Translations under genes and position numbers: made by a program
Source: an uncultured bacterium
GTDB taxonomy: Bacteria; Auribacterota; CAZIXI01
DNA length: 40,901 bases
Assembly (NCBI GenBank): GCA_964543115.1
Contig: CAZIXI010000001.1
Location: forward strand, 1-40,901
Direction of reading: 5' to 3'
Notes under the pieces: model-generated
The model's input: the letters and a program-made list of their open reading frames with translations, nothing else
What the model was told of the DNA's origin: nothing
Database searches by the model: none
In this document: piece after piece, positions 9,493-25,574 of the stretch
Layout of the letters: every line of letters starts with the position of its first letter
Position numbering within the stretch: position 1 is the stretch's first letter

Positions 9493-9516
9493 AGCCACCA
9501 CCTCCGTGTTAAATTT

Positions 9517-9609: not shown

Positions 9610-12600
9610 ATTTTCAGACGCTATTTGAATACCATCCCGAACTCTGCTCCAGCCGTGTTTTACCAACCGCTTTAACTCAACGGAATTCAAACAAATAACA
9701 AAATTATTAAGCCACTTAAAAAAGGCAGCGGCCCAGGCAGGCGCCTTGACCTGCTCTTCTCTGTTCATAACCTCGTCCTTACGCTCCGCTGTCACCTTTC
9801 GGGGAGTAATCTTTATTATTCCCGGCCGCTGATAGGAAACCTCTTCCATCCTCCGTTTAAACTGCTCTCTCGGCAAGGGCGCCACCTTAACAACCTCCTC
9901 TTCGTAGAGGTCAGCATCTCGGTCAGGATATAATTCCCTGCCCAGGTAGCTCCGGTAATAAGAATAAGGCTTTTTCTCCGGCTTACCCGCCGCACCAGCA
10001 GTCTCTCTTGGACAAATAATACTTTTTCTTTCGCCCTTTTCCCGCAGCACGTATACCGAGCCATAACCGTAATTATACCCCTTGGCTGACTCATCTTCTT
10101 CATCACCATCGTCGTTAATTATTTGCGTCTCATTTTCTTCTATATTATTATTTTCTTTTTTATCCCCTTGTTCCATTTCCTCATTTTCTTCTTCTTGCTC
10201 ATCTCCCTGTTCTTCTTCCTGCTCATTATCTTCTTCATCCCCTTCCTTATCTTCTTCTTCCTCTTCATCTATATCATCTTCATCATCTTCCTGTTCATCA
10301 TCATCCTGTTCATCATCATCCTGTTCATCCTCTTCCTTGTCTTGCTCATCTTCTTCCTGACTATCCGGTTCTTCTGCATCCTGCTCAGGATCATCTACAT
10401 CCTCTTCACCCTCATCTTCGTATCCATCATCGCTGTTCTCCTCCCCTTCACCCTTCTCATAAGCCAGGAAAAGGCTATAGCCATCGGGCGCTATTTCGTG
10501 CTGCAGTGCCCCAGCGCATTTCTCGGCAATCAAATCACCGGTCAGCAAATCCTCAACCGTCTTATCCACAATCAGCGCCGAGCTCACCTGCACTGTTTCT
10601 GTGGTATCCGGACTGTAATTTTTGAAACTCATTAAAACCTGTGAAAGATCAGCAGTAACCAGGTAATCTACCAGCACCAATGAACTACCGCTAACAATCA
10701 ATTCCGGCGTTAAACCAAATCCGTGATTAGTATCAGTATAGATCATCCTCATCCAGCCATATCTGTCCTCCCAGGTCCAATCACTGGCCCCGTCAGCCAG
10801 GTTATCAATCGGCTTATTGGCACCCAGACTGAATAATGATATTGCCGTATCATATTCCGGACTGCCCAGGTAATCATTTACAATCAGGGCCGGCGATCCG
10901 TCAGAATCGTCAAACCGGGCCAGCACCGCGCCTTTCCCGGCAACGATCTCATCCCGGTACTTCCACATATTCACGAAGTTGTTATAGTCCAATAACGGTG
11001 AATAAAGCAGCCGGGCGTCGTATGTTATACTAAAAGAGGCTGTCTCATAATAACCATAACTTTGATCATCGTCCTCCAGGTCAGGGTCTATCTGCAGATT
11101 ACTGGCATCGGTATCGATGCCAAACAAATCTTCCAACATAAATAACCAATCCGGATCGGTATTTCGAGACACGCCATATTCATCCATAATTCCGGGCAGA
11201 TCGGCATTCACATGGATCTTTACTCCACCCAGCGCCGCGGCAGTGAGCTGAGCCAGAACATCACCGCTCATCTTCTGATTGCGTGACAACACAACAGCCT
11301 TATAGCCGGAATAATCCCCCGCCAGCATCTCCTCACGATTAATAAATCCCGGACTAAACCCCAACCTCTTTAACGTACCGAATAAATTATGCATTTCCGC
11401 CTGAAAACGGTTCACGATACTGTCAAGCGCGTCAGTCCACAACAAAGCGATATCCGGTGCCGGATCAATAAACTGCGGCAGTAATTCCTGAATTTTTATG
11501 TCATCCATCTGCTCGAACATTTTCTTAACTATTGTATATACGGGTTTCGGATTGCCCTCTATATCCACTACTCCAAAACCAACTTCCCTGGCCGTTACAT
11601 AACATTGATCCCGGTCACTCCAATGAAAAATACAAACACCGGCGGCCCCGGACGCTACTGTTTCCCAGACAGCGTTTCTCACCAATAGCGCCTGCCGCTC
11701 TTCATCAATGCCCGGATACATAATCTCCGTACTGGTAAATCCCGTCTCTGTTACCATCACCGGCAATCCAGCATCATGCCGCGCCCGGGCAATGCCCCAT
11801 TTGCCGGTCATCAATTCATCATTTTCCAGGCCCCAGGGATAGTTGTTAATACTCCAGAAATCCAGCGGCGTACCGGCAGCACTGCAGGCCAGAACAATCT
11901 TTCTGGCATCTTCGGTATGATACCGCCAATCTTCCTCGCCCCACTGCATACCCACAACCGCGTAGGTAATGAGATGGTTCTCATCCACTTCTTTTACTGC
12001 CGCGGCCAGTAAAGCAATATAGCCGCCAATACTCTCCTCCCGCCATTGAGTAAGGTCATACCAGCTGGTTTTGTCCCGGGCAAGATACCGGCCGGCATTC
12101 TCACCCGCGTAACCAAACGGTATCGGCATATCCACCTGGGCAAAATCCGCGTATGGATGCCCCGGCAAATAGCCGGGTTCAGCAGCATTATCCTTGGCCC
12201 ATTGCTCATTAAGCGCGCCGATACTACCGGCGTACCTATCCTCCAGCCACTGCCGAAAAGCGCTCTGACAGGCATCATCATATCCATCATACTCAACACT
12301 CCACAGACCCATATAACCATACTCATTTCCCAGAATCCAGCCGGCAACAGTATCAGCAAGATCTTCACGCGCGCCCCCAACAGAATAACGGCCCACAACC
12401 GCTTGTAAATATTCGGCTGCTTCCGCCCGCACCTCCGGATGCTCATAACTCAAGATATCCGACTGCCAGGGCCCCTGCGGATGCGCCTCACAAGGGGGAT
12501 GCTTTGTATACCAGTCATCCGGAAACCACTCCGGCGGCCATTGATAACCAATAACCGGAAACACCTTTAGCCCCCGGACCTGAGCCTCTTCCAGTAACAG

Positions 12601-15087
12601 ATCATAATTATCCCACTCAAAATGATCATCTTCCTGCTCAATATGCTTCCAGACAAAATCCACCCGCAAGGCATTGGCGCCCACTGCCTGCATCCCGTCT
12701 AAATCATTACGCAATTGCACCGGACTTTGCCACTGCCCCAGATCCTTCACCCAGGTCTGATAAGCAATGCCCCGCGGCAGCCAGTATCCACCCTGACCGT
12801 CATTTGACTGCGGATTCCAGAAATATCCGTTCTCCAGGCGGATATAATCATCCGCTGTATATACAGGATCAATAAACTCATCCGTTTCATAATTCGGATC
12901 ATAATAAACACCTATTTCACCAATTGCCACACTGCCGCCATCTGTATCAAAAACAACAGTAACCGTTACTACATCAGCTACACTATCGAAAACAATCTCC
13001 ATATTCTCATTATTAACCCCAAATTCCAGTTCAACCACATTACCCTGAGCATCGGTAATAAAGATCGTGCCGCCGGCAGCACCCTTAATCGACTCTAGAG
13101 TTATTTTATTAATAAACTCCAGCGGATTTTCGTCATCCCAACTATATTGCAGCCAGGGTGAAGGCTCCGCAGCGGAAATCCACTCGGTAGCCGGATCACC
13201 ATCGTTAATGTTAGCCTTATCCGCTTCTCCGGTGGAAACCTCTACCAGCGCGGCGCTATACGCGTAATTTTCCAGCTCCGCGCACACTTCTCCTTCCAGA
13301 AACAAAACATCATCTATCCGGCCGCTGCCCTGTACAAACATTGCGTTAATATCAATAATATCAATATCCGGATAGGCATCATGAAGATCCTGGGATAGAT
13401 TGCGCTTAAGGGTATGCCACTTACCATCCCGCGCGTCAGGCAGCCCGTGATGAATGAACTTACCGCCCTCATCCACCATCTGCAGCATATCCCCGGCAGT
13501 GGGTGTATAGTAAAGATAATGACGGCCGGCGGTAGTATCCACACTCACATACAACGCGAAATCCAGGTGATATCTCATTGACCACTGAAACAGCGTATTT
13601 TTCAGATTAAGATAAGCGCCATCCGGATTCATCAAGGCATAACAATTATTGAGCCCGGCACCATCCAGTTCAATCACCCGCGAACCCCGGCTCCAATCAT
13701 AAACACAAGCAATCTCCGCCTCATCAGGATCATTGTCAAAAACACTCCAGCCGGCGGTATTATAATCAGCAAGCCAATTTCCAGTACCGCGATTATCGAA
13801 TTCACTCATTCCCCACTGAATCTCAGCGGGCTGAAAATCACCCGGCAGATCAATTGAATGCACACTACCGTAACTACTGAACAATAACTCTAAATCACCG
13901 GCGGGATTAATAACGTCACCCACACTATCCTGATCAATATCCACCAGCACCAGTCCCGGAGAAAGCGCAAAACTGTATGGTTCGGGCCAGCCGGCTATTT
14001 CCTTTTCCACCCCGGAACCGGTAAGACAATGCAATTTTCCGGAAGCAGAAGAGGCAATTATCTCCGGCTCCCCATCATTATTAATATCGCCAACAACAGG
14101 CTGGTAAACCGCTTCCTGCCCCAATTCCGCAAAAAAGACACCGCTGCCAGCCAGATTATAAGCCGCCAGACAGCCATTAGCAGACCCGCTAAGGATCTCA
14201 GCAACTCCGTCGCCGTTAATATCAGCCAGACTTAAATATGCGCCATCCGTATTGTCTACTTCTTCCAAATCCACCGGGAAGCCGTTTAACTCTTCCAGGG
14301 CACCGGCGGTATAACGATATCCATAAAGCTTAACCTCCGCCCCAATATCCGCGGAGAAAAAGATCTCCGGATTCCCATCATTATCAATATCACCGGCAAC
14401 CGGCCAGCCGGCCTCAATAAATACATGTGCCGCGCCAGCCAATTCCGCCTGATCACCATCAAGGATGAAAATTCCATCCTCGCCGGCAGCAGCAATCTCT
14501 TTTTTCCCGTCATCATCGAATTCAGCAAGGGCAATCCGGTAATCCTCGAGATAAACAACCTCATCTTCAAATCCATCACTGATATCACCGACAGCCAGAT
14601 TACCCGGCACAAAACCAGGGACAACGGGATATCCATCCGCCTCCGCGCCATCCGCGCGCCAGGCATAAACACTTCCGGCATCCCCTCCCTCATTCTGCAG
14701 CCCCAAAATAATTTCCAGTTTCCCATCAGCATCCAGATCACCCACGGAAATACCGGTTACCGCCCGGCCGCTGACACTAACCGGCCAGCCTTCCCGCAGA
14801 GCGCCATTGCGCTGCCAGACATACACGCTGCTCTTATCTTCGGCCTCATCATATCCCGCGCAGATAATCTCCAGCACAAAATCACTATCTAGATCAGCCA
14901 CAACCGGTGCGCTCATCGCCAAATCACCACCGGTACCGTATTTATCCGGATGAGAGGTAACCTTAGTAACAATAGCAATGTTGTTAAACTGCAATACCTG
15001 GGCGCACAACATTCCTGTTAGGGCCAACACCCTCGCCAGAACCAACAACATAACTATGTTAACACTCTTCCGCCGCATTATACTCAC
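9559..15087 (-). CDS. Giant secreted protein: FG-GAP repeats, discoidin/CBM-like region, clan GH-A (GH42-like) glycoside hydrolase and poly-acidic tail
   Basis: 1842-aa ORF. It has a signal peptide (the ATG at 15078 after GAGGTG is the likelier start). FG-GAP-type repeats include GDLDADGKLEII, GDIDNDGNPEIF, ADINGDGVAEIL and GDINNDGEPEII (about 13850-14910). NINDGDPATEWIS resembles a discoidin domain. The TIM-barrel hydrolase region has RVDFVWKHIEQEDDHFEWDNYD, the acid/base motif GWILGNEYGY (NE at 12322-12327) and the nucleophile motif VMVTETGF (E at 11746-11748). YKAVVLSRNQKMSGDVLAQL..GGVKIHV resembles the GH42 middle domain. Confidence 0.85.
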   Translation of the reverse strand: MSIMRRKSVNIVMLLVLARVLALTGMLCAQVLQFNNIAIVTKVTSHPDKYGTGGDLAMSAPVVADLDSDFVLEIICAGYDEAEDKSSVYVWQRNGALREGWPVSVSGRAVTGISVGDLDADGKLEIILGLQNEGGDAGSVYAWRADGAEADGYPVVPGFVPGNLAVGDISDGFEDEVVYLEDYRIALAEFDDDGKKEIAAAGEDGIFILDGDQAELAGAAHVFIEAGWPVAGDIDNDGNPEIFFSADIGAEVKLYGYRYTAGALEELNGFPVDLEEVDNTDGAYLSLADINGDGVAEILSGSANGCLAAYNLAGSGVFFAELGQEAVYQPVVGDINNDGEPEIIASSASGKLHCLTGSGVEKEIAGWPEPYSFALSPGLVLVDIDQDSVGDVINPAGDLELLFSSYGSVHSIDLPGDFQPAEIQWGMSEFDNRGTGNWLADYNTAGWSVFDNDPDEAEIACVYDWSRGSRVIELDGAGLNNCYALMNPDGAYLNLKNTLFQWSMRYHLDFALYVSVDTTAGRHYLYYTPTAGDMLQMVDEGGKFIHHGLPDARDGKWHTLKRNLSQDLHDAYPDIDIIDINAMFVQGSGRIDDVLFLEGEVCAELENYAYSAALVEVSTGEADKANINDGDPATEWISAAEPSPWLQYSWDDENPLEFINKITLESIKGAAGGTIFITDAQGNVVELEFGVNNENMEIVFDSVADVVTVTVVFDTDGGSVAIGEIGVYYDPNYETDEFIDPVYTADDYIRLENGYFWNPQSNDGQGGYWLPRGIAYQTWVKDLGQWQSPVQLRNDLDGMQAVGANALRVDFVWKHIEQEDDHFEWDNYDLLLEEAQVRGLKVFPVIGYQWPPEWFPDDWYTKHPPCEAHPQGPWQSDILSYEHPEVRAEAAEYLQAVVGRYSVGGAREDLADTVAGWILGNEYGYMGLWSVEYDGYDDACQSAFRQWLEDRYAGSIGALNEQWAKDNAAEPGYLPGHPYADFAQVDMPIPFGYAGENAGRYLARDKTSWYDLTQWREESIGGYIALLAAAVKEVDENHLITYAVVGMQWGEEDWRYHTEDARKIVLACSAAGTPLDFWSINNYPWGLENDELMTGKWGIARARHDAGLPVMVTETGFTSTEIMYPGIDEERQALLVRNAVWETVASGAAGVCIFHWSDRDQCYVTAREVGFGVVDIEGNPKPVYTIVKKMFEQMDDIKIQELLPQFIDPAPDIALLWTDALDSIVNRFQAEMHNLFGTLKRLGFSPGFINREEMLAGDYSGYKAVVLSRNQKMSGDVLAQLTAAALGGVKIHVNADLPGIMDEYGVSRNTDPDWLFMLEDLFGIDTDASNLQIDPDLEDDDQSYGYYETASFSITYDARLLYSPLLDYNNFVNMWKYRDEIVAGKGAVLARFDDSDGSPALIVNDYLGSPEYDTAISLFSLGANKPIDNLADGASDWTWEDRYGWMRMIYTDTNHGFGLTPELIVSGSSLVLVDYLVTADLSQVLMSFKNYSPDTTETVQVSSALIVDKTVEDLLTGDLIAEKCAGALQHEIAPDGYSLFLAYEKGEGEENSDDGYEDEGEEDVDDPEQDAEEPDSQEEDEQDKEEDEQDDDEQDDDEQEDDEDDIDEEEEEDKEGDEEDNEQEEEQGDEQEEENEEMEQGDKKENNNIEENETQIINDDGDEEDESAKGYNYGYGSVYVLREKGERKSIICPRETAGAAGKPEKKPYSYYRSYLGRELYPDRDADLYEEEVVKVAPLPREQFKRRMEEVSYQRPGIIKITPRKVTAERKDEVMNREEQVKAPAWAAAFFKWLNNFVICLNSVELKRLVKHGWSRVRDGIQIASENKRKERKDLRRVRRVFT
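10085..10465 (-). repeat. Poly-acidic low-complexity tract (D/E/Q rich) with short tandem nucleotide repeats
   Basis: The protein segment reads EGEENSDDGYEDEGEEDVDD...EEDEQDKEEDEQDDDEQDDDEQEDDEDD...GDEEDES. The plus strand shows repeated ctgttcatcatcatc units around 10283-10335. Confidence 0.8.
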
Positions 15088-15093: not shown

Positions 15094-15125
15094 CTTTATT
15101 TCTTTATTTCTTTACTTCTTTACTT
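15094..15125. repeat. 4 x 8-nt tandem repeat (ctttattt x2, ctttactt x2) across a gene junction
   Basis: Read directly from the sequence. It spans the TAA of the 278-aa ORF (15112-15114) and the spacer before the RBS of the 1842-aa ORF. Confidence 0.6.
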
Positions 15126-15876
15126 CAAACTCCGTCTCCCCTTCAGCTACCCGTTCTGCCGCCCCATACAACTTCCCATAATCCACCCTGGCCTTGAGTT
15201 GATAACTCCCCGGAACAAGATCAAGCCTGCGGCTGAACATAAACGGCCTCGTCTGCCCCACCTGCGCCGGCTGGCCAAAAGGAACATTAAAAACACATTT
15301 TCTTTCTCCTTGCGCGTCTAAAACTTCCAAATCAATCTGCGGCCGAATATGAATATTGCTTTCATTCTTCACAAAAACAGTGCCGCTCATCTTTTTCGCC
15401 GCCGGATCGTACTTCAGCTTAATCTTATTCACCGCCGCGCCCAGCTTGACCGTATTCTGAGCAATGGCATAAACAGGCACACCAAAACGGATACCCAGCA
15501 GTGATTTCTGCTTGCCAAGTTCATCAGCCACAAAAAACACCATACAACGATACTCACCTTCGGCCCCTTCCGGCAAAACGATCTTATAGGGCACTTTTTT
15601 CTCCTGTCCCGGATCAAGTTTGAGCTTGTCCGTCTCAACAGAAAACCAGTCAGCTACACCGATATCCCTTTTGCCTTTCTTATCCAGCTCAACCCTGACC
15701 TGAAGCGGAATTTTACCGGTATTTTTTAATTTAAAACACTGCTCAGCCGGCACCCCTTTATCCACCACTGCCTCCAAAACAACCGGATCAACATTAAGGC
15801 CGGCAAACAAACAGTCTGGCCACATAGTCAGCACAAAAGCTAAAACAGCAACAAAATAAAGTTTATTTATTCGCAT
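15112..15876 (-). CDS. Secreted two-domain beta-sandwich protein, possibly a PapD-like chaperone
   Basis: The track ORF is 15112..15948. The ATG at 15876 follows AAGGGGG and gives the signal peptide MRINKLYFVAVLAFVLTMWPDCLFA. The mature part is about 250 aa with alternating beta-strand patterns in two halves (LNVDPVVLEAVVDKG..CFKLKNTGKIPLQVRVEL and SGTVFVKNESNIHIRPQIDLEV). The function call is by pattern only. Confidence 0.6.
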   Translation of the reverse strand: MRINKLYFVAVLAFVLTMWPDCLFAGLNVDPVVLEAVVDKGVPAEQCFKLKNTGKIPLQVRVELDKKGKRDIGVADWFSVETDKLKLDPGQEKKVPYKIVLPEGAEGEYRCMVFFVADELGKQKSLLGIRFGVPVYAIAQNTVKLGAAVNKIKLKYDPAAKKMSGTVFVKNESNIHIRPQIDLEVLDAQGERKCVFNVPFGQPAQVGQTRPFMFSRRLDLVPGSYQLKARVDYGKLYGAAERVAEGETEFEVKK

Positions 15877-15970
15877 AAACACCCCCTTCCTCCGCGCGTC
15901 CCGAACAAACTCAGGGCGCGCAGAGGAAGGAGGGAGACTAAAAAACAATCTCCCTCTTCCACTCTTCGCT

Positions 15971-16918
15971 TTATTCGTGGATCAGTTCAATATACAGACT
16001 GGTGGTATAGGTATCCGGCTCCAACAGATAGGCCTGCGGATTATTGGGATCACCCCAATTAGTACTCGCGAACCTGGAAGCCATAAAGATCACCATATCG
16101 CCGTCAGCTAGACTAACCATTGAACCATCGACATTACCGCCGGTAGCCGGAACCAAGCTGCCGTCCGAGCCGGGAGCTCCAATCGCCACGATAGAATAGA
16201 CCATATCATCCTCTTCGCCGTCTCCGTCAGCGTCATTGAAGATCTCATCGACAAAACTATCATCGCTCTTATCACCAATGTAATGCCAATCATCAAACGC
16301 GACCCAACAATCGCCCACATTGTCATCTTCAATATATGAACCCGTTCCCTGAGGAGTCAAAGAAGACACAGGCGAATAATTGACCAGATCAGCAGCGGCA
16401 TAAGAATCATATGCCTGCCAGGCGATCACCGCCCGGTTCCCGGGATCCAGGTCATCAATGGTTTTCGTTCCGGCAGCAACATCCTGAATATCGCCTACAC
16501 TCAACAAACCGGAATAGGACAATGACCCGCCGCCGCTGTCATTGCCGGCGACATAATCAGTGATGGGAACATCCGCGCCAACCACAGCATCGACAACATC
16601 ATCATTATCAGTAATGATCCGTATACCCCAGGAATAGTTACTGGAATAATCAACCCTAAAACACTCATCGGCCACCGTCCACAAACTGGCGCCGTCATTC
16701 AGATCCAGGCCGCTCAGGTCAAAACCAAGCGTCCCGGCCCCGGGAGCGCCGGTAGCGGTAATCAAATAATTGACATTTAAACTAGTTGAACCGGCAATCT
16801 GCACGGAAATAGAAATGGCTTCCGAGGCTTCGTCAATATCCGCTCTCAGCGGCGCGCCCCAGGCACAGATCACTACGGCCATAATACTTGCCACAATCAC
16901 TCTAAATAACTTACTCAC
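15971..16918 (-). CDS. Secreted acidic protein, paralog family member (WGIRxxTDN motif, C-terminal YxELxHE)
   Basis: 315 aa. The GTG start has AGGAGG 5 nt upstream. Signal peptide KLFRVIVASIMAVVICAWGAPLRA. Motifs are SWGIRIITDN, IAWQAY, GDKSD, ASRFAS and the C-terminus LYIELIHE. Confidence 0.8.
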   Translation of the reverse strand: MSKLFRVIVASIMAVVICAWGAPLRADIDEASEAISISVQIAGSTSLNVNYLITATGAPGAGTLGFDLSGLDLNDGASLWTVADECFRVDYSSNYSWGIRIITDNDDVVDAVVGADVPITDYVAGNDSGGGSLSYSGLLSVGDIQDVAAGTKTIDDLDPGNRAVIAWQAYDSYAAADLVNYSPVSSLTPQGTGSYIEDDNVGDCWVAFDDWHYIGDKSDDSFVDEIFNDADGDGEEDDMVYSIVAIGAPGSDGSLVPATGGNVDGSMVSLADGDMVIFMASRFASTNWGDPNNPQAYLLEPDTYTTSLYIELIHE

Positions 16919-16965
16919 TAGAACCTCCTTATTCAGTTTAATAAGAGTTCTGCAAAATAGTCTTT

Positions 16966-17050
16966 TGTCATACCGCGGCTTGACCGCGGTATCCAGAAAT
17001 AATTACATCGCAAACACTACTGGATCCCGCGGTTAAACCGCGGGATGACA
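16966..17050. repeat. Two inverted copies of a ~31-nt REP-like hairpin element
   Basis: The left copy, tgtcATACCGCGGcttgaCCGCGGTATccag, is at 16966-16996. The right copy, ctggATCCCGCGGttaaaCCGCGGGATgaca, is at 17020-17050. Each has a 9-bp stem and a 5-nt loop, and the copies are mutually inverted with a 23-nt spacer. The element is intergenic, between two paralog genes. Confidence 0.75.
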
Positions 17051-17230
17051 TTTGAGCTTTTTTACTCTATTTTACAGAAGTCTAAGTTTAATGAATATTT
17101 ATCAGCCATCCGCGTTATCCGTTAACGGGCTGATCTCACTTGTTATATGTTAACAGCTGAAAACCCCATTGATAAATTTGTCCTCACCTCCTTTTTGGGA
17201 TCATTTTAATTTCAGCTCATTTCTTTCGCG

Positions 17231-18166
17231 CTATTCGTGCAGCAACTCTACATAAACCGTCGCTCCATAACCGCCGGCAGGCAGCTCAAATTCCAGCGGA
17301 TCTTCCCCTGTATAATCCTTACTGCCAAACCTTGCTCCGATATATACCACCACATCACCATCACCGGCTTTGGGAAAAGGAACACCATCCATCCCCATAC
17401 CGGTTATCGGATGCTGTGCTAAATAGCTGGCCGCACCGTTACCGAAAATCGCCAGATTATAGTTATACTCCGCCAGCACTTCATTATCCTCTCCCCAGAA
17501 ATAATCCAGCACCAGCCCACCCGCGTATCCGCTATCGCTTTTATCCATCATATACGCCCATTTTGTCTTCCAGTTATCAGCCGGATCTTCCGGCGTCGGA
17601 TCTACCTCTGCATCGCTCAAAATATCCGGAAACTGTTTATTTTCATATATCTGCCAGGCCAATTCCGCCCGCAGCCGCGGATCGTCATATTTATCCGCGG
17701 ACACTAACCCGCCATAAGAAACAATATCGTCACCCACCTGGTACTGCCCATTGACATACACATATCCATCATTTCCCGCCTCTTCCCATTCCCATTGCCC
17801 GTCCTCCCCTTGAGCCAATGGCTTAGGATACATCTTGTTCCAAATTATTTTATTATCAGTGACCAGCCTGATCCCCCAATTCGGGGTATTACAATCATAA
17901 ATTATCCGCACATATTGATCGGCAATAACCCAGGGATTATCCACGCCAAACTCCTCTGATTTAAGCCCGGTAAAAGTCATATGCGAAACAGGAACTAAAT
18001 TGTCATCGCTTATTTTTCTGAGTTCCACGCTTAACGTTGACACTGCCGGCAAAAAGAAACCAGCCTTAACCATTTGCTTCTTGGGCAGCACAATATCATC
18101 AGCCAGACAAACTCCCCCTAAACTGACCACTAAAATTACCAGAATTATTTTTAGCATCCAGTGCAT
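17231..18166 (-). CDS. Secreted protein, paralog family member (WGIRxxTDN, C-terminal YVELLHE)
   Basis: The track ORF is 17231..18220. The ATG at 18166 (MHWMLKIILVILVVSLGGVCLA) gives a signal peptide and avoids overlap with the upstream stop at 18177. Motifs are NWGIRLVTDN, LAWQIY, MDKSD, GARFGS and the C-terminus VYVELLHE. Confidence 0.8.
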   Translation of the reverse strand: MHWMLKIILVILVVSLGGVCLADDIVLPKKQMVKAGFFLPAVSTLSVELRKISDDNLVPVSHMTFTGLKSEEFGVDNPWVIADQYVRIIYDCNTPNWGIRLVTDNKIIWNKMYPKPLAQGEDGQWEWEEAGNDGYVYVNGQYQVGDDIVSYGGLVSADKYDDPRLRAELAWQIYENKQFPDILSDAEVDPTPEDPADNWKTKWAYMMDKSDSGYAGGLVLDYFWGEDNEVLAEYNYNLAIFGNGAASYLAQHPITGMGMDGVPFPKAGDGDVVVYIGARFGSKDYTGEDPLEFELPAGGYGATVYVELLHE

Positions 18167-18176
18167 AGCTATCACC

Positions 18177-19025
18177 CTAATAATGGTACATCTGCACATA
18201 TACCTTAGTGTCATAATCACCGCCCGCTACTTCACTGAAGTCGGCGCCTAAATAAACATACATCCCATAGGGCCCGTTACCCTGACCGTCAACCGCGCCC
18301 AATCCGCCGCCAAAAGTCATCTCCGCGTGCTGCATCCCCATCGGGCCCACCACCGTGGCGTAATCCATCCCGTTCTGCCAAGATAAACCCGGATGGGGAA
18401 ACCATTGCCCCCAAAACTCTACCGGATCACTCCAGCCGTCATTGGCCCTATCCTTCATCCAGATCCAGCAATAATAATCTTCCGGGCCCGCCCTCTTTAA
18501 ATGATGCTCCGCTGTTTCGATAATCTTAAGTTCCGTTTCCTTATCCTCAAACGGCACGGGATGCGCCGCCCGCCAGCACATGGGCAGCCTGTGCTTTCCT
18601 GTCTCATGCACCAGGCCCGCGGCAAAATCACCCGCCACCTTTCCCTTTATCTCTTCCGCTATTTCTTCCGGCACTCCGGCCGGCGCCAGCATATAATTGG
18701 CGTTGTACACATATTTGGTATTTCTGCTCACTAATGTATTATCGGTAAATATCTGTATTCCCCACATATCCGGCCATAGCTCTTCCCCGAAAGAATATTC
18801 AATAAACAAATATTTATCCGCTGCCTGCCACTTTGTCTGCCCCGGAACAATCCCGGACCAGGAAACTTTACCGCTAAAATCAGTACTATCATCACTGACA
18901 TTCTTGATCGTGACCGACAATTCCAGCGCATAGACAGAAGATAAACCGATAAACAGCACCCCCAACAGTATTAGAATCATTAGCTTTTTGCGCATCATAG
19001 TGCCTGATATAAATACAAGAAACAT
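18177..19025 (-). CDS. Secreted protein, divergent paralog family member (WGIQIFTDN, C-terminal YVQMYHY)
   Basis: 282-aa ORF. The start is ambiguous: ATG at 19025, or ATG at 18998 giving MMRKKLMILILLGVLFIGLSSVYA. Motifs are MWGIQIFTDN and the C-terminus KVYVQMYHY. Confidence 0.75.
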   Translation of the reverse strand: MFLVFISGTMMRKKLMILILLGVLFIGLSSVYALELSVTIKNVSDDSTDFSGKVSWSGIVPGQTKWQAADKYLFIEYSFGEELWPDMWGIQIFTDNTLVSRNTKYVYNANYMLAPAGVPEEIAEEIKGKVAGDFAAGLVHETGKHRLPMCWRAAHPVPFEDKETELKIIETAEHHLKRAGPEDYYCWIWMKDRANDGWSDPVEFWGQWFPHPGLSWQNGMDYATVVGPMGMQHAEMTFGGGLGAVDGQGNGPYGMYVYLGADFSEVAGGDYDTKVYVQMYHY

Positions 19026-19309: not shown

Positions 19310-19324
19310 TGGCACCTAAGTTGC
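19310..19324 (+). promoter_or_regulatory. Sigma54 (-24/-12) promoter
   Basis: TGGCAC-ctaag-TTGC is an exact match to the TGGCAC-N5-TTGC consensus. It is intergenic, about 160 nt upstream of the ATG at 19483, and the downstream operon encodes a sigma54 activator. Confidence 0.7.
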
Positions 19325-19482
19325 GTATTAGAAACAGGCACAGGCAAACAAAACAAAAAACCGTATCTGAGGAGACAACGTAAACAAAGCTAAAGCAGGT
19401 TGGATCGAGCCGTAAAAGGAATGCCGTGGTCCTTGCCCTTCCATGCTTCCTCTCCTGCTTATTTACTCACCAAGGGGGGAAA

Positions 19483-19977
19483 ATGAAAAAAATAATTATC
19501 TTCATAATTGGATTTATCCTTTCTTCATTAATTCAGCCAGCTCCCGCCGGCGCCTATGAGAGCGATATTGATATATATGGAAAGATCACCGAAGTAGGCG
19601 CCAGGGCCCGTGACGAATATGTAACCTTCACCATAAAAGACGCCCTGGGTATAGATCGCTATTTCAGCTCTGACAATAATCTCATAGCGCCGATGATCGT
19701 CTCTGCTTACCACACCCAGACAATCTGCCGAATAAAATCAGCAGGTAAAGACAGAGACGGATACAATATCCTTTCCGCCTTTGCCCTGGATACGGATTAC
19801 GACACCCCGAAAACGAATGACAGAATTCTAGTTGAATTGAAGGAAATGAGAACACGCTTAGATAAAATAGAAAAGCTTTCTTACTATATTTCCCGTTACA
19901 TCAATAAAATACGCAAAAACGAACTGCAAATAGAAGAAATGGTTAAAAAACAGGAAAAAGCCAAAGGAGGAATATGA
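19483..19977 (+). CDS. Secreted hypothetical protein with C-terminal coiled-coil-like tail
   Basis: The track ORF starts at 19426. The ATG at 19483 follows AAGGGGGGA and gives the signal peptide MKKIIIFIIGFILSSLIQPAPAGA. No family recognised. Confidence 0.7.
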   Translation: MKKIIIFIIGFILSSLIQPAPAGAYESDIDIYGKITEVGARARDEYVTFTIKDALGIDRYFSSDNNLIAPMIVSAYHTQTICRIKSAGKDRDGYNILSAFALDTDYDTPKTNDRILVELKEMRTRLDKIEKLSYYISRYINKIRKNELQIEEMVKKQEKAKGGI

Positions 19978-20192: not shown

Positions 20193-20315
20193 TTGAAATA
20201 ACCGCGCTCCCCGGGTGGTTTATACTCCCCAGATACTGCTCTCAGGGTATCTACCTATTTACCCCTTGAAATATCCCAAAACATGTAATATCATATGGGA
20301 AAAGGAAATACTCTT

Positions 20316-21710
20316 ATGAGCAAACTTAAAGGAAAAATACTTATCGTTGATGACGACAAGTTTTTCTGCGACATTAAATCCGCCTTCCTGCAAAAAAACG
20401 ACTTTGAGACAGAAACCCTCAACTCCGCCGGCCAGGTGCTGGACACGTTAAAATCCGCCTTTTTTGACCTCGTACTGCTGGACTTAAAGATAGGTGAAGA
20501 AAACGGCATTGAGGTACTGCAGGGAATAAAGAAATTTGACCCGGAAACACCGGTCATCATGATAACCGGGTTTGAAGATGTGGCCACCGCGGTTGAGGCC
20601 ATCCAGGAAGGCGCCTATGATTACCTCAAGAAAAAGATAACTAACGAAGAGCTGTTGATCAAAATAGACCGGGCGATTGAAAAGCATAAAGATGCCGTGG
20701 AAATACGCACCCTGAAAGACGCCCTCAACGAACACTACGGATTTTCAAATATCGTCGGCGCGAATAAGCACATGAAAGAGGTATACGAACTGATAAAAAC
20801 AGTCTGCGATACCGATGCGACAATACTAATTAACGGCGAAACCGGCAGCGGCAAAGAACTCATCGCCAAGGCCGTACATTTTAACAGTCAACGAAAAGAC
20901 AAACCGTTCGTCGCCGTAAACTGCGCCGCGATAAGCGAACACTTAATGGAAAGCGAACTTTTCGGCCATGAAAAGGGCGCCTTTACCGGCGCGCATCAGC
21001 AGAGAAAAGGTAAAGCAGAGATAGCCCACGGCGGAACGTTATTCCTGGACGAGATAGGCGATATGTCACTTAACCTGCAGGCCAAACTGTTAAGGTTCCT
21101 GCAGGATAAATCCTTTGAGCGGGTAGGCGGCAACGACACCCTGACCTCCGATACCAGGGTAATTACCGCCACCAATAAAAACCTGCCCCAAATGATCCAG
21201 GACAATGCCTTCCGCGAGGATCTTTATTACCGGATCAACATGATGCGTGTCGAATTACCTCCCTTAAGAAGCAGGCTGGATGATTTACCCCTGCTGGCGG
21301 ATCATTTCATTAAACGCGCCAACATAAAATACGGCAAACAGGTAAAAAGCTTATCAAATGAGACCCTGGAAAAGTTGAAAGAATATCCCTGGCCGGGAAA
21401 TGTCCGGGAACTGGAAAATGTTATCAGCCGGCTTGTGCTGACCTCCAAAAAGAACCTGATCAGCGCCCAGGAGATCTCCGGTTTCCTGCAAGCGCAGGAA
21501 ACCCCCGCCCAGGAAGATTTACCCAGCGTGGATGTACCGCTTCGCGAGGCCCGGGAAGATTTCGAAAAATGGTACCTGAAAGAATTATTAAGAAAATACC
21601 ACGGAAACATAAAAATGGTCTCTGAAAAATCCGAAATGCAGCGGAAATCAATCTTTCTGAAAATGGCCAAATTCGGCCTTAAAAAAGAAGATTTCAAAAA
21701 ACTCCCCTAA
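20316..21710 (+). CDS. Sigma54-dependent response regulator (NtrC family: receiver, AAA+ domain and Fis-type HTH)
   Basis: The receiver reads KILIVDDD...DLVLLDLKIG. Walker A is GETGSGKE. ESELFGHEKGAFTGA contains the GAFTGA sigma54-contact loop. GTLFLDEIG, RVITATN and FREDLYYRIN follow. The C-terminal HTH reads NIKMVSEKSEMQRKSIFLKMAKFGL. The track start is 20295. The ATG at 20316 has AAGGAA upstream. Confidence 0.92.
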   Translation: MSKLKGKILIVDDDKFFCDIKSAFLQKNDFETETLNSAGQVLDTLKSAFFDLVLLDLKIGEENGIEVLQGIKKFDPETPVIMITGFEDVATAVEAIQEGAYDYLKKKITNEELLIKIDRAIEKHKDAVEIRTLKDALNEHYGFSNIVGANKHMKEVYELIKTVCDTDATILINGETGSGKELIAKAVHFNSQRKDKPFVAVNCAAISEHLMESELFGHEKGAFTGAHQQRKGKAEIAHGGTLFLDEIGDMSLNLQAKLLRFLQDKSFERVGGNDTLTSDTRVITATNKNLPQMIQDNAFREDLYYRINMMRVELPPLRSRLDDLPLLADHFIKRANIKYGKQVKSLSNETLEKLKEYPWPGNVRELENVISRLVLTSKKNLISAQEISGFLQAQETPAQEDLPSVDVPLREAREDFEKWYLKELLRKYHGNIKMVSEKSEMQRKSIFLKMAKFGLKKEDFKKLP

Positions 21711-21729: not shown

Positions 21730-22458
21730 ATGAATAAAGCGCATAAATATTCTATCTTGATTACTTTGATCCTGCTATCCGCTGTAATCTACTACGGTCA
21801 CACCTCCGCCGAAGGCAAAATATCCGGCGGTGAATTTGTCGTAAAACTGGTGCACTCTCTGGGCCTTGATTACAAACTGCCGGCTGACGCTACGGCAAAT
21901 GATTTTATTAATCTGCTGAAAGAACAAAAGATTATCTTTCCCCCGGATTTTGATCCGGCAAAACCAATCACCAGGGATCAAAAAGCCGAGCTCCTGTCAC
22001 AGGCCCTGTCCATGGAAGAAATCGGCAAGGATAAGCGCCAGCGAAGAATGGAAATCTACCGGGATAAAGCGGTCATCAAAAAGATAGAGGGTAAAGTAAT
22101 GGTAAAACGCGGCGGCACTGATGAATGGATTCCCGCGGAACTGGACATGCAATTAACGGAAAGCGATTACATAAAAACCGGCCCCGCCTCCGAGGTTTCC
22201 CTGCGGGTAGGGGTTTCCGGGGTAATCCAGATCAAAGAAAACAGCGAATTGTTGCTGCGCACCCTGGCCACAGAGGCAGACAAAAAGTCAGAAAACATCC
22301 TGGTCTACCTGGCCATGGGTGAGATCGAAGTTGACGTGAGATTTATTGACCGTCATTCCACCTTCGAAACCCAGACCCCCACCACCGTTGCCGCGGTCCG
22401 CGGCACCATCTACATCGTCCGGGTATCACCTATTGACGGAAAAACAGAAATACGGTAA
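21730..22458 (+). CDS. Secreted FecR-domain protein
   Basis: GGAGGG RBS and a signal peptide. IEGKVMVKRGGTDEWIPAELDMQLTESDYIKTGPASEVSLRV....IKENSEL...TPTTVAAVRGTIYIV fits the FecR-domain pattern. Confidence 0.75.
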   Translation: MNKAHKYSILITLILLSAVIYYGHTSAEGKISGGEFVVKLVHSLGLDYKLPADATANDFINLLKEQKIIFPPDFDPAKPITRDQKAELLSQALSMEEIGKDKRQRRMEIYRDKAVIKKIEGKVMVKRGGTDEWIPAELDMQLTESDYIKTGPASEVSLRVGVSGVIQIKENSELLLRTLATEADKKSENILVYLAMGEIEVDVRFIDRHSTFETQTPTTVAAVRGTIYIVRVSPIDGKTEIR

Positions 22459-23024: not shown

Positions 23025-25574
23025 CTAGGATCGAGGATCTTTAATCGGCAGATACACCTTGAACGTTGTCCCTTTATCGACGATACTTTCAGCCTGAATC
23101 GTGCCGCCGTACTTTTTCACTATTTCCTGGCTGGCATAAAGGCCCAGGCCCGCGCCTTTATCCTCCCTTTTAGAAGTAAAAAACGCCTCGAATATCCGGC
23201 CCAGATTCTCCGGCGGTATCCCGCAGCCGGTATCTTTTATCCGCACTTCCGCCATATTTTCCCTGTCTTTGGAAACCAGAGAAATCACCGTTAATTCCCC
23301 ACCCTTAACCATGGATTCAACAGCATTATGGATCAGATTTAAAAACACCTGTTTTAACTCACCCCGGTCCGCTAACACCAGCGGCAGCTTAGAATCTAAT
23401 TCCTTGTTTAATTTAATCTTTTTCTTCATTAACTGGCCGGAGGAAAGATTCAACATCTCTTCGATAACTTCATTAATCGCCACCGCTACGACTTCTTTTT
23501 CCCGGGGACGATAAAGGTCCTTTAAGCTCTCACTCAAGCTATCCAGCCGTTTGGTTTCTTCCAGCGCGGAGGTAACAAACTTTTTGGCCAGGGACAATTC
23601 CTCCACCTCTACCTTATCCAGATCATCTTTTACCATTTCCAGGCTGCTCTTTAAATTAACGATCGGTTTACTTAAGTCATGATGCAATGTGGCCGCCACC
23701 TTCCCTACCGCGGATAAGCGCTCACTCTTGATCACTTCCTCCTGCGCCGTGCGCAGCTTATTAATCATAATGGCCATCGCTTTGTATTTTTCTTCTAATT
23801 CTTCCGTAACGTAACTCAAATCAATTTCAGATATTTCTTTTTCCTCCTTATATTCCACCAGCGGAACCCTGTCTACCTCCCGATCATACACGCATATTTT
23901 ATTGGCACCCTCTTTTCTTGCTCTGAGCAGCGCGGCTTCCGCGCGTTTAACAAAAGGTTTCGCGTATCTTTCCCTTACGTCCCGCGAATCGGCAATACCG
24001 GCACTCAGGGCCAAGGAAGAAACCGAAGTTATCTTTTCATTGAGCGTTTTTCCGATTCTCTCCGCATAGGACCGGGCGCCTTGTTTGGCTACCTGGCGCA
24101 AAACTGAGCAGAACTCAATCTCTCCGTAACGGGCAATAAAATCTATTCCCCTGGTCTTGCGGGAAGATTTAACAATCAAATTTGCCGCCTCTTTTATCAC
24201 ATTATTGGCCTTTTCCGCTCCCAACTCCGAAACCACCTGTTCGAAATTGTCTATGCCGAAGAGCACCAGAGACAGCTCCTCATCCTCCCTGAGATGTTTA
24301 AGGATATTATCCAATTTCAGCAGGAAATACCTCCTGGTAGGCAGCCCCGTCAAGATATCAACTATAACAAATTTTTTTATCTTAAAACTTTGAATAAGTA
24401 AACTCACGTAATTCGTTATCACCCCGGTTAAGTAAACTGCCAGCACGACAAGGGGAACACTAAAAAAATCCCAGCTTATATTATTAATCACTAAAAGCAG
24501 ACTAACGGCGGCAAAGAGAGCCAGAATCACCACTGTCCAGATAGTGCCGGAATAAATTCCTCTTTTAACGGTGAGAATACTGATTATTACACTTAATACT
24601 AACAAAAGCGCGATATTTACCGCCGCCGGCAGATGATAGATAAAATCCCTGTTCAGCAGCATTACCGCCGTATTAGCGATTATGCCCACACTGGCCATTT
24701 TTCCTAACGGCGTAAGATTAGCTTCCTGTAATGCCTCACCCGTAGCCCCCACCAGGACTATCCTTCCCCGAAAAAGATCCGGAGAAACATTACCGCTGAT
24801 AACCTCTCCCAGAGGAACAACGGTAAAATCAGCTAATCTCGCGGAATAATTAAGCGGTATAATACCGTTTTCGGGGACGGATAGGTTTAGTTTTTCAGCT
24901 AAACTTTCCGGTGAAATTTCCGCCAATGGCTTACCGGCAAACGCCCAGACAACTTTCAGATCGAAGGCATAATCAATTACCTCTCCCTGAAGCGCGTGCA
25001 AGCGAAAAAGCCTGGTTTCCCGAATAACACCGTCTTTATCTTCCGGCTTATTAGTAAAACCATAGCCAAGAGCATTTTCTGTAAACTTATGCGCTGGAAC
25101 AATATACCTGCCGTCCTGAGAGTCAAAGTAGGAAGCCAGGATAACGTTTCCCGCATCCCGGAAGGCCCCGGCCAACAGATCGTCACTGGCCTTTAAAGCC
25201 GGAACCGGACTGGTTCCGCTAAAAACAAGGTCGAAGGCAATTACGGCAGGTTGATGCTTTATGAGCTTATAAACAAGATTGGCAAAGACATCACGCTTCC
25301 AGGGCCATTTCGCCCTGACCGCCTGATCATCAATGGCCACAATGAGAAATTTATCCAGATTTTCCGGCCGGGAGGTAAGTTTATATTTTAAATTCGCTAA
25401 CAGATCACCGGCCTTAAGCTTGGGAGTGGTAAGTAATCCGGTTAGGCTGCCGATGGAATAGAGAACCAATATTACAGCAGCTACTGTCAGAGGCCGCCGC
25501 AATCGGACCAACTTTCTCAGCCATAAATAGTTAGTCATAATAAACTTCGGGAAGTCAATGGAATTTAACCGCAC
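23025..25574 (-). CDS. Hybrid sensor: CHASE2 domain, TM block, degenerate GGDEF domain and histidine kinase (HisKA + HATPase_c)
   Basis: The CHASE2 region reads FLIVAIDDQAV..WPWKRDVFANLVYKL..PAVIAFDLVF. TM helices lie at about aa 310-400. The GGDEF-like region reads DILTGLPTRRYF...FGIDNFE...ARYGEIEF, with GEIEF at 24111-24125 in place of GGDEF. The H-box is AATLHHDLSKPI. The ATPase region reads NLIHNAVES, IKDTGCGIP and GAGLGLY. Confidence 0.88.
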   Translation of the reverse strand: MRLNSIDFPKFIMTNYLWLRKLVRLRRPLTVAAVILVLYSIGSLTGLLTTPKLKAGDLLANLKYKLTSRPENLDKFLIVAIDDQAVRAKWPWKRDVFANLVYKLIKHQPAVIAFDLVFSGTSPVPALKASDDLLAGAFRDAGNVILASYFDSQDGRYIVPAHKFTENALGYGFTNKPEDKDGVIRETRLFRLHALQGEVIDYAFDLKVVWAFAGKPLAEISPESLAEKLNLSVPENGIIPLNYSARLADFTVVPLGEVISGNVSPDLFRGRIVLVGATGEALQEANLTPLGKMASVGIIANTAVMLLNRDFIYHLPAAVNIALLLVLSVIISILTVKRGIYSGTIWTVVILALFAAVSLLLVINNISWDFFSVPLVVLAVYLTGVITNYVSLLIQSFKIKKFVIVDILTGLPTRRYFLLKLDNILKHLREDEELSLVLFGIDNFEQVVSELGAEKANNVIKEAANLIVKSSRKTRGIDFIARYGEIEFCSVLRQVAKQGARSYAERIGKTLNEKITSVSSLALSAGIADSRDVRERYAKPFVKRAEAALLRARKEGANKICVYDREVDRVPLVEYKEEKEISEIDLSYVTEELEEKYKAMAIMINKLRTAQEEVIKSERLSAVGKVAATLHHDLSKPIVNLKSSLEMVKDDLDKVEVEELSLAKKFVTSALEETKRLDSLSESLKDLYRPREKEVVAVAINEVIEEMLNLSSGQLMKKKIKLNKELDSKLPLVLADRGELKQVFLNLIHNAVESMVKGGELTVISLVSKDRENMAEVRIKDTGCGIPPENLGRIFEAFFTSKREDKGAGLGLYASQEIVKKYGGTIQAESIVDKGTTFKVYLPIKDPRS

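Follow-up and report, generated by a model that had tools for sequence, protein, structure and literature searches.

Candidate usher-less surface module of secreted beta-rich subunits and a PapD/WxLIP-like partner in uncultured bacteria

What is built by three neighbouring genes for secreted proteins of an unnamed family that lie next to a gene for a chaperone-like protein? This question is raised by a 40,901-nucleotide stretch of DNA (the window), for which the initial annotation had listed four such open reading frames. All four are present on the minus strand and are called here A (18177..19025, 282 aa in the list of open reading frames), B (17231..18166, 311 aa), C (15971..16918, 315 aa) and D (15112..15876, 254 aa from its ATG), and each starts with a hydrophobic signal-peptide-like segment. 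The probable true start of A is the MRKK at 18995, its database version having 272 aa, and D would have 278 aa if translated from an upstream TTG at 15948. In BLASTP comparisons B and C match each other with an E-value of 2e-12 and A and B with 1e-6, A and C with only 0.009. As the HMM A7, which represents distant family members only with the window sequences left out, also finds A (1.3e-42), B (5.7e-31) and C (3.2e-16), the three are paralogous beyond chance, as had been proposed; a further family HMM (A4) finds A with 6e-32. An orthologue of B (P0002, 66% identical) is present in the syntenic locus L001.

An exhaustive profile search of this subunit family resulted in 173 clusters, nearly all of them with 250–360 aa, a signal peptide and the C-terminal motif Y-x-T-x-LYVELxHE. 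The shared motifs named at the outset are hallmarks of the whole family, as the consensus of 67 relatives contains PW..A.QYL.V.Y......WG.RI.TDN, RA.LAWQV and WAY..DK.D as well as Y.T..YVEL.HE at the extreme C-terminus, and the same motif layout is found in a more distant branch of about 250 aa. Searches against Pfam, NCBIfam and the PDB sequences gave no match for the family of A, B and C, which indeed carries no recognised name, and no match of the paralogs to an enzyme family, which would count against a fibre, was found.

The AF2 model of C (pLDDT 87.2, pTM 0.80) was compared with the PDB using Foldseek, and the fibril proteins TLP-1b (2.2e-4) and TLP-1a (1.4e-3) were the top matches with a probability of at least 0.99. 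TLP-1 is the single fold match below 1e-3, the TM-scores being low (0.32–0.43), and not even profiles or a concatenated query revealed any sequence similarity between the subunits and TLP-1. The next matches are CanA (E 0.11) and TasA (E 0.15), neither of them significant alone, and TLP-1, CanA and TasA are all donor-strand fibres. The suggested likeness to fibre subunits thus stands as far as the best solved fold match is concerned, but not for the C-terminal strand as the free donor: the hallmark strand of C (YTTSLYIELIHE-COOH, 15974..16009, minus strand) is modelled as an integral core strand (E308-314) with high confidence (pLDDT 93–96). Proteins of the family nearly always stop 2–3 residues past this strand, and almost every full-length subunit hit is covered by the profile up to its final residue.

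The sole low-confidence unstructured stretch of the monomer model lies at the N-terminus, where residues 21–40 of C show a pLDDT of 55–68 and no secondary structure, with values of at least 90 from residue 41 on. An extension of about 20 aa is present here in B and C and absent from A. In alignments it comprises residues 23–44 of B (DDIVLPKKQMVKAGFFLPAVST, 18035..18100, minus strand), which follow the signal-peptide cleavage site and precede the first core strand, and residues 27–44 of C (including EAISISVQIAGSTS, 16787..16840, minus strand), where hydrophobic residues alternate in a pattern that is kept in relatives. In A the signal peptide ends with ...VYA and is directly followed by the first core strand LELSVTIKNVSDD. 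The distance from the signal peptide to the conserved Trp, read for each sequence, falls into two groups of about 30–40 and about 42–67 residues, and at least one extended subunit together with one non-extended subunit is encoded in all seven close-clade loci (the window, L001, L006, L007, L008, L009 and L028). In a few fusion proteins the HMM match begins at position 30–31 and so covers part of the extension. As the extension separates B and C from A and the closest structural analogues are all N-terminal donors, the donor strand is probably N-terminal and not C-terminal, the extensions of B and C being the likelier candidates, and A becomes a candidate tip or cap subunit.

For D, the AF2 model shows two consecutive all-beta domains with high confidence (pLDDT 89.4), and the best Foldseek matches include an enterococcal WxLIP (9i25_C, 4.8e-10) and the chaperone-usher chaperones YadV, CsuC, Caf1M, CfaA and FimC (1e-9 to 1e-7), supporting the earlier description of the 278-aa reading frame as an Ig-like, PapD-sized and chaperone-like protein. 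Further matches of D are Vpr fibrils, RbmA and CEP192, two-Ig folds being common. Its Pfam match is Cep192_D3 (PapD-like/ASH, 3e-7), with no match of the window protein to PapD_N or PapD_C, and among 22 members of the D family WxLIP_PGBD is matched by seven, WxLIP_HBD by three and PapD_N by three; a family profile matches CsuC weakly (E 0.016). The motif NESNIHIRP (N171-P179, 15340..15366, minus strand) marks the start of domain 2, and its N, N, H, I, R and P do not vary between phyla (alignments A6 and A8). Distant relatives carry an N-terminal P-x-R-x-E motif, the Arg of which we take to be comparable to Arg8 of PapD and which is missing in the clade of the window protein. D has no C-terminal transmembrane helix and is basic (44 K/R versus 33 D/E), complementing the charge of the acidic subunits, C in particular being very acidic (51 D/E versus 9 K/R). 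Two D relatives contain an AMIN domain, a periplasmic peptidoglycan-associated module, which would suit a periplasmic location. We regard D as a protein that may chaperone or anchor the subunits in the periplasm.

In order to follow the partnership beyond the window, D was searched alone by its family motifs (NESNIHIRP serving as the pattern), giving 44 loci, 17 of them from GTDB genomes and 27 from metagenomes, with Omnitrophota, Elusimicrobiota, Verrucomicrobiota, Aminicenantes and others as hosts. A gene with a subunit domain adjoins D in 25 of them (11 of the 17 GTDB and 14 of the 27 metagenome loci), which supports a conserved subunit–D pairing across phyla. In several other D loci the subunit position is taken by different small secreted paralogs, and L006 has subunits and the protein E described below without D. 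In other phyla the subunit domain often forms the C-terminal part of a glycoside hydrolase, and a glycoamylase-like or GH2-like protein of this kind lies directly before D in L019, L021, L023, L039, L045 and L047-49; some multidomain relatives have the subunit domain at the N-terminus. The neighbours include type II secretion (T2SS) E/F/G genes, located after the module in L039 and L048, GH5, GH94 and CBM30/11 proteins and a sugar ABC transporter.

Within the window D is followed after 24 bp by E (9559..15087, minus strand), a secreted protein of 1842 aa for which Pfam shows an FG-GAP beta-propeller and a GH42-like TIM barrel. It further has an acidic tract of 130 aa (10084..10473), and its C-terminus is conserved and basic/amphipathic. 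Orthologues of E come after D or the subunits in L001, L006, L007, L008 and L009, and E is likely the enzyme that the assembly displays or is associated with. A GspG-like pseudopilin (9058..9549, minus strand; prepilin N-methylation motif and DUF1559 in Pfam, NCBIfam GspG 2.4e-8) is encoded 9 bp downstream of E, an order kept in L001, and represents a possible link to type II secretion-type export. As stated in the initial annotation, there is no usher: none was found among the scanned window ORFs of at least 150 aa, and none was noticed among the selected neighbours scanned in related loci.

We give an even chance to the reading that A-B-C-D(-E) is a widespread undescribed two-component surface module, in which a strand-complemented fibre or display structure is made with a PapD/WxLIP-like partner and without an usher. 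Family membership, the predicted folds and their similarities, the conserved gene adjacency, the extension split and the link to hydrolases and T2SS genes are seen in the data themselves; for subunit binding by D, polymerisation, polarity, export route and function we infer the following model. A, B and C would be Sec-exported, acidic, beta-rich subunits with an acceptor groove in the core fold, flanked by the first core strand and the invariant C-terminal strand. Periplasmic D probably complements each subunit with a beta-strand and would thereby keep it assembly-competent or anchor it. B and C would polymerise by inserting their N-terminal extension into the groove of a neighbour, the donor-strand exchange known from TLP-1, TasA, CanA and chaperone-usher pili, and A, lacking the extension, would only accept a strand and mark one end of the fibre. 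Judged from the gene neighbourhood, export across the outer membrane might proceed by type II secretion-like machinery. The assembly would be tied to carbohydrate-active enzymes, in the window as the separate protein E and in other phyla as a hydrolase fused N-terminally to an acceptor-type subunit domain, like a two-domain tip adhesin or a 'long WxL' protein. The pairing of subunits with D in several poorly known phyla would then point to a so far undescribed mechanism by which an enzyme-carrying surface fibre is built or anchored without an usher. Points that speak against the model are the low TM-scores and absent sequence similarity of the TLP-1 match, the non-significant TasA and CanA matches, the commonness of two-Ig folds, the motif Arg missing from the clade of D, the lack of D in L006, the N-terminal subunit domain of some multidomain relatives and the early start of the HMM match in a few fusion proteins.

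Some of these data can also be read as a non-filamentous complex, which we consider rather unlikely. The subunits would be envelope anchoring modules, D would insert a hairpin strand into each and hold it on the peptidoglycan or the outer surface, and the complex would only tether hydrolases and binding proteins (E or fused passengers), as in the arrangement of small WxL, long WxL and WxLIP proteins of Lactobacillales. The more frequent WxLIP than PapD_N matches of the D family, the WxLIP structures among the top Foldseek matches of D and the two AMIN-containing relatives fit this idea, and the carbohydrate-utilisation neighbourhood resembles what has reportedly been put forward for the csc/WxL clusters of Lactobacillus plantarum. 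The locus layout is that of WxL clusters, in which a two-Ig protein accompanies one small protein that consists of the domain only and one large protein with a further copy at its C-terminus (PMC10599100). For WxLIP, completion of the WxL sandwich by a strand is predicted. However, the Pfam WxL domain is matched by no subunit, the WxL chain of 9i25 is absent from the best 50 Foldseek matches of the subunit model, D lacks the NQIDK motif of WxLIP as well as its transmembrane helix, and polymerisation accounts better for both the extension split and a fibre being the best fold match.

It seems improbable that the paralogs are monomeric jelly-roll proteins that bind carbohydrate or calcium in the manner of lectins or CBMs and aid the hydrolase E, with D as a generic Ig-fold accessory or adhesin that complements no strand. 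The invariant Trp, Asp and Asn residues (W, WG.R..TDN, DK.D) and the strong acidity would suit sugar or Ca2+ sites, GH and CBM genes are abundant in the loci and two-Ig folds are widespread, but Pfam analysis of 138 members gave no CBM or lectin family except in passenger domains and neither is among the Foldseek matches listed. This reading would also leave unexplained why a PapD/WxLIP-like protein is strictly adjacent across phyla, why the C-terminal hallmark is placed so exactly and why there are two N-terminal classes. A two-dimensional lattice (S-layer or sheath) with D as periplasmic holdase is very improbable: acidic, beta-rich, secreted subunits with several paralogs per locus would be compatible with it and one S-layer protein (7ptp, E 3) appears far down the Foldseek list, but no S-layer match is significant, the best matches are helical fibres and a non-extended subunit suits a linear polymer with ends.

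Compared with known systems, the usher-less fibre favoured here resembles TLP-1a and TLP-1b (PDB 9IKJ/9IKK; CryoSeek, Tsinghua Lotus Pond) as the only significant solved match, with secreted, beta-rich protomers of about 240–300 aa, long loops and an N-terminal segment that is disordered in monomer predictions and is the donor strand in TLP-1, where it inserts between beta2 and the C-terminal beta7 (PMC11494351). In contrast, no sequence similarity to these orphan pond-water fibrils was detected, and neither a partner chaperone nor a heteropolymer is known for them. TasA from Bacillus and CanA from Pyrodictium are likewise secreted jelly-roll-like subunits that polymerise by an N-terminal donor strand, but the subunits described here show no Peptidase_M73 match in Pfam, a SipW-type signal peptidase gene was not found in the window, and TasA and CanA fibres are chaperone-free whereas a PapD-like partner is conserved next to the subunits here. 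The WxL clusters (WxLIP being DUF916-DUF3324) share the architecture, a WxLIP-like partner and the predicted strand insertion and differ in that our subunits match WxL neither by sequence nor, among the matches listed, by fold. They are reported almost only from Lactobacillales and Bacillales (PMC10599100), unlike the loci found here in Omnitrophota, Elusimicrobiota, Verrucomicrobiota, Aminicenantes and other MAGs. Chaperone-usher pili of the PapD/FimC/CsuC type differ by their usher, by an Ig pilin instead of a subunit fold of about 300 aa nearer to TLP-1 and TasA, by the PapD_N and PapD_C models, which D of the window does not match, by the motif Arg that its clade does not conserve, and by their hosts, as those found here are Omnitrophota and other non-proteobacterial phyla. 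With these pili the module shares a boomerang-type two-Ig partner beside several paralogous subunits, a conserved C-terminal strand with alternating hydrophobic residues, some subunits without an N-terminal extension, comparable to tip adhesins, and large proteins with an N-terminal functional and a C-terminal subunit domain, comparable to two-domain adhesins.

The genes under study form a tight row on the minus strand, in which three paralogous secreted subunits, A (18177..19025), B (17231..18166) and C (15971..16918), are followed by the two-Ig protein D (15112..15876), the 1842-aa secreted FG-GAP/GH42-like protein E (9559..15087) and a GspG-like pseudopilin gene (9058..9549). Downstream of the row lies a giant minus-strand ORF (2..8293) of more than 2764 aa, which continues past the left end of the window. 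Pairwise BLASTP connected B with C (2e-12), A with B (1e-6) and, weakly, A with C (0.009). An HMM built from distant relatives alone, including no window sequence, gave high scores to A (1.3e-42), B (5.7e-31) and C (3.2e-16), confirming the paralogy proposed in the initial annotation, and the motifs that had been picked out there proved to be the consensus of the entire subunit family. Signal-peptide-like starts are present on A, B, C and D, as had also been claimed for the paralogs and their partner.

The family to which the subunits belong is indeed an unrecognised one. Neither Pfam nor NCBIfam gave a match for A, B or C, and PDB sequence searches came up empty as well, whether run with single sequences, with three family profiles or with ten distant members joined into a 2187-aa query. 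In 138 subunit relatives the only Pfam domains were the passengers that a few long proteins carry. The possibility that the paralogs are enzymes was rejected, as there were zero enzyme matches. Using a word-indexed homologue search we obtained 2–4 subunit relatives at most, so that an exhaustive profile search was required to reveal the family: hmmsearch against 1.84 billion representatives yielded 173 clusters at E ≤ 1e-3 and 79 at ≤ 1e-10. Nearly all of these measure 220–360 aa and start with a signal peptide; the profile covers them down to the final residue, and their C-terminus reads Y-x-T-x-L-Y-V-E-L-x-H-E or a near variant. All six subunit-family proteins that we looked up are named 'hypothetical protein' in every source.

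The AlphaFold2 model of D (21 homologues, pLDDT 89.4) consists of two successive all-beta (beta-sandwich) domains. Foldseek matched it to enterococcal WxLIP (9i25_C, bound to a long WxL protein, 4.8e-10; 9i1y, 9e-10) and to YadV, CsuC, CupB2, DraB, Caf1M, CfaA, FimC and SafB (1e-9 to 1e-7) with a TM-score (target) of at most 0.58, which bears out the PapD-like two-Ig partner suggested earlier; other two-Ig proteins, namely the Vpr fibril, RbmA and CEP192, were matched too. The only Pfam match of D from the window was the PapD-like/ASH-type Cep192_D3 (3e-7). Among 22 diverse D-family members WxLIP_PGBD (DUF916) was found in seven (best 3e-6), WxLIP_HBD (DUF3324) in three (best 5e-4) and PapD_N in three, with the window D not among them in any of these cases, and the best PDB sequence match of the D-family profile was CsuC, weak at E 0.016. 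An invariant N-x-(G/S)-N-(V/I)-H-I-R-P is located at the start of domain 2, and in distant relatives the first strand carries the motif P-x-R-x-E, whose Arg is replaced by Val in the window clade. In PapD, the conserved cleft residues R8 and K112 anchor the C-terminal carboxylate of the subunit. D is basic and the subunits are strongly acidic. Relatives of D have K/E-rich tails at the C-terminus, and two of them carry an AMIN domain, a periplasmic peptidoglycan-associated module, so that a periplasmic location would fit.

Close relatives of the cluster (40–66% identity) show the order subunits, D and E-like giant FG-GAP/GH42 protein in the related loci L001/L002, L007, L008, L009 and L028, and L006 has subunits and E with D missing. 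We also scanned for loci with D-family motifs as the only bait, the subunits not being used, and found 17 loci in GTDB species genomes and 27 in metagenomes. The 17 genome loci originate from six Omnitrophota MAGs, Elusimicrobiota, Aminicenantes, Opitutales/Puniceicoccaceae, Marinamargulisbacteria and MAGs labelled 'Clostridia'. Local HMM searches located a subunit-family domain directly beside D in 11 of the 17 genome loci and in 14 of the 27 metagenome loci, those without it being mostly contigs too short to judge, and some of the remaining loci carry different small secreted paralogs with a similar C-terminal pattern beside D. No subunit bait entered into this adjacency. No other evidence speaks more strongly for a joint function of subunits and D. 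In the Aminicenantes-type loci L013 (1..3379), L014 (7230..11446), L037, L038 and L040 three or four unannotated secreted paralogs of ~200 aa, ending in W-x-V-T-Y-T-L-T, precede D, which is about 485 aa long in loci of this type and has a C-terminal AMIN domain. These small paralogs were rejected as homologues of the window family, since hhalign could match no more than 13 N-terminal columns (prob 68%); they gave no PDB or WxL match, and we treat them as a different subunit family in the same locus position. Relatives of D with more than 32% identity were absent from the GTDB species-representative genomes, and at least 20 with 36–63% identity were present in metagenome assemblies; the clade of the window seems to be missing from the 185,579 reference species.

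For C, AlphaFold2 with a 67-sequence alignment (pLDDT 87.2, pTM 0.80) gave a beta-rich model with long loops and a few short helices. The sole Foldseek match below 1e-3 in the PDB was TLP-1b (2.2e-4), followed by TLP-1a (1.4e-3), both with prob ≥0.99. TLP-1a and TLP-1b (9IKJ/9IKK) are orphan fibrils solved by cryo-EM straight from pond water (PMC11494351). Next in the list were CanA cannulae (0.11) and the TasA fibre (8aur_A, E 0.15, prob 0.14, TM 0.21–0.25), and CsuA/B and PapA, pilins of the Ig fold that lacks its seventh strand and is completed by a donor strand, matched weakly (E 1.9–2.7). Because the TM-scores to TLP-1 are only 0.32–0.43 (10–12% identity) and the profile and concatenate PDB searches revealed no sequence-level similarity between TLP-1 and the subunits, we treat this as a probable relation at the fold level and not as family membership. 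The analogy to fibre subunits drawn in the initial annotation holds, with the TLP-1 fibrils as the best solved fold match. Foldseek against viral structures brought up no significant match, so that descent from a viral capsid jelly-roll was no longer considered.

The model also bears on the strand that might be exchanged between subunits. In TLP-1 the N-terminal strand of the protomer is disordered in AF2 monomers and inserts into another protomer, in the cleft that its beta2 and C-terminal beta7 form (PMC11494351); in fibrils of this type it is donated to protomer n+4, completing the sandwich. The C model places the C-terminal hallmark in the core as a strand (E308-314, pLDDT 93–96), and its sole poorly predicted part, residues 21–40, is the stretch from the signal-peptide cleavage site up to the first core strand. 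The initial annotation had taken the C-terminal strand for the exchanged element, which is probably wrong, as it is modelled in the core; by analogy with the C-terminal strand of chaperone-usher pilins and beta7 of TLP-1 it is likely to line the groove, and the donor strand is more likely N-terminal than C-terminal. Many members possess an extension of ~20 residues with alternating hydrophobics between signal peptide and first core strand, and others are without it. In the window it is present in B (residues 23–44) and C (residues 27–44, including EAISISVQIAGSTS) and has no counterpart in A. The distances from signal peptide to conserved Trp, per-sequence values read by eye, fall into two groups of about 30–40 and about 42–67 residues, and each of seven close-clade loci has at least one extension-bearing and at least one extension-less subunit. 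In distant loci the gene preceding D often encodes 900–2000 aa with an N-terminal passenger (Glycoamylase PF10091, GH2 TIM barrel, Big_9/cadherin or CBM-like domains) and a C-terminal subunit domain, and in such fusion proteins the HMM match begins at or past the extension positions. Putative donor-bearing subunits next to acceptor-only ones would follow the logic of polar donor-strand fibres, where the terminal subunit or two-domain tip merely accepts.

Genes related to carbohydrates recur around the module. CBM30/CBM11 proteins and proteins with CHU_C/FlgD-Ig-like C-termini are encoded immediately 3' of D in related loci, FG-GAP together with Glycoamylase occurs in L017, and GH5, GH94 and a sugar ABC transporter are among the neighbours. 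In E itself, over half of a 130-residue tract (10084..10473, aa 1539–1668) is Asp/Glu, and the conserved basic/amphipathic C-terminal region behind it, common to E orthologues, is a separate 157-aa ORF in L008. Right behind the signal peptide, E (14980..15015) and all its orthologues (L001 and L006–L009) have a conserved alternating-hydrophobic segment of the form I-x-I-x-I-x-x-K-I-T-T-H-P-D, ending in K-(I/V/M)-T-(T/S)-H-P-D. As it resembles the subunit extensions it could, speculatively, dock E on an acceptor subunit, and it could equally be the first propeller strand.

Consistent with the earlier statement that no usher is present, PF00577 was not found among the scanned window ORFs of at least 150 aa, nor among selected scanned neighbours in related loci. 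The loci L039 and L048 have T2SS E, F and G genes behind the module, and an ORF of L019 has an N-terminal sequence close to the T2SS E proteins of these two loci. The giant ORF downstream of the row contains divergent SecA_DEAD, SecA_PP_bind and Helicase_C domains at residues ~1588–2168 and corresponds to the giant genes of 'Archaeovorin' type known from Omnitrophota, of which SecA_DEAD/SecA_PP_bind is a hallmark, which makes Omnitrophota the most likely origin of the window. Such giant genes reportedly have T2SS-like loci, small prepilin-like genes and genes for solute-binding proteins and glycosyl hydrolases on their flanks, and a role in the degradation of prey cell walls is assumed for them (bioRxiv 10.1101/2023.11.21.568195). 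An 8076-aa protein is also encoded just upstream of the subunits in L007. As the cluster adjoins predation-implicated giant genes in Omnitrophota, it may belong to that poorly understood apparatus. None of the consulted papers on Omnitrophota or on TLP-1 mentions the module.

Concerning regulation, the B–C gap is unusually long (312 bp) and contains two GC-rich hairpins (16973..16989 and 17027..17043, CCGCGG-N5-CCGCGG), which are the two found in the window versus 0.12 expected, with 0 in 26 related loci; they could serve as mRNA stabiliser or as attenuator setting subunit ratios. Sigma-70 promoter and terminator scans across the cluster stayed at chance level, and a sigma-54 candidate that overlaps the beginning of A was rejected for its two mismatches. 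Perfect sigma-54 -24/-12 sites (TGGCAC-N5-TTGC), both intergenic, are located at 19310..19324 (+), 102 bp upstream of a small secreted-protein gene (19426..19977), and at 32831..32845 (-), 42 bp upstream of an 837-aa gene (30276..32789), and a near-consensus site (TGGCACCATTCTTGT, one mismatch) at 8317-8331 lies just upstream of the giant ORF. Next to the site at 19310..19324 are genes for a sigma-54 activator (20295..21710) and for a FecR-like protein (21730..22458). The flanking region also encodes a CHASE2-GGDEF-HisKA-HATPase hybrid sensor (23025..25574), a 2627-aa TPR-containing protein (32996..40879) and a PqiA/MlaD pair (26540..28131), the latter indicating a diderm envelope.

We propose that subunits and D would leave the cytoplasm via Sec and that D would bind the subunits by strand complementation, keeping them assembly-competent or anchoring them. 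B and C would polymerise through their N-terminal extensions with A capping one end, outer export would proceed by a T2SS-like route and not by an usher, and the assembly would carry or organise the hydrolase E. We give this mechanism as a whole about even chances. The main rival is a non-filamentous anchoring complex as in WxL systems, which we consider possible but doubtful. The layout of the module equals that of WxL clusters, where WxLIP is accompanied by a small WxL and by a long WxL that carries the WxL domain at its C-terminus (PMC10599100). The NQIDK motif of WxLIP is absent from D, and D has no C-terminal transmembrane helix, its sequence stopping directly after domain 2. The WxL domain (Pfam PF13731) is absent from 67 close subunit-family members (E ≤ 1), 71 distant ones (E ≤ 0.01) and 10 small paralogs of other loci (E ≤ 1), and so is Peptidase_M73 (camelysin/TasA) from the window paralogs (E ≤ 1) and the same 67 close (E ≤ 1) and 71 distant relatives (E ≤ 0.01). 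That the subunits are monomeric lectin-like proteins is in our view unlikely, and that they build a lattice is very improbable.

In summary, the module is real, conserved and unannotated, and it would vary the principle of assembly by strand complementation through a new subunit family, a WxLIP/PapD-like partner, the lack of an usher, the link to GH and T2SS genes and hosts from uncultivated phyla. A bolder reading, which we put forward only tentatively, is that loci of this type contain the genes so far missing for orphan fibrils of the TLP-1 kind from the environment, and that they represent a third class of donor-strand pili, chaperone-assisted, usher-independent and exported by a T2SS-like route. 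If true, this fibril class would span Omnitrophota, Elusimicrobiota, Verrucomicrobiota, Aminicenantes and relatives, and glycoside hydrolases would be placed at the fibre tips, either fused or docked by a donor strand like the N-terminal segment of E. Predatory Omnitrophota would have it beside the SecA-domain 'Archaeovorin' giants, as part of a prey-attachment and cell-wall-degradation apparatus, and the Firmicutes WxL/WxLIP clusters and chaperone-usher pili would be linked as evolutionary relatives. The module would offer a first genomic handle on TLP-1-type fibrils, and the two new profile families, for subunit and D, could be used to annotate hundreds of 'hypothetical proteins'. To our knowledge, the only beta-strand-complemented surface assemblies with a two-Ig partner are the chaperone-usher pili of Proteobacteria and relatives and the WxL/WxLIP clusters of Firmicutes; the module would extend this principle to uncultivated phyla and a new subunit fold, would add an usher-less, possibly T2SS-dependent route, and would put the principle to a new use in displaying polysaccharide-degrading enzymes.
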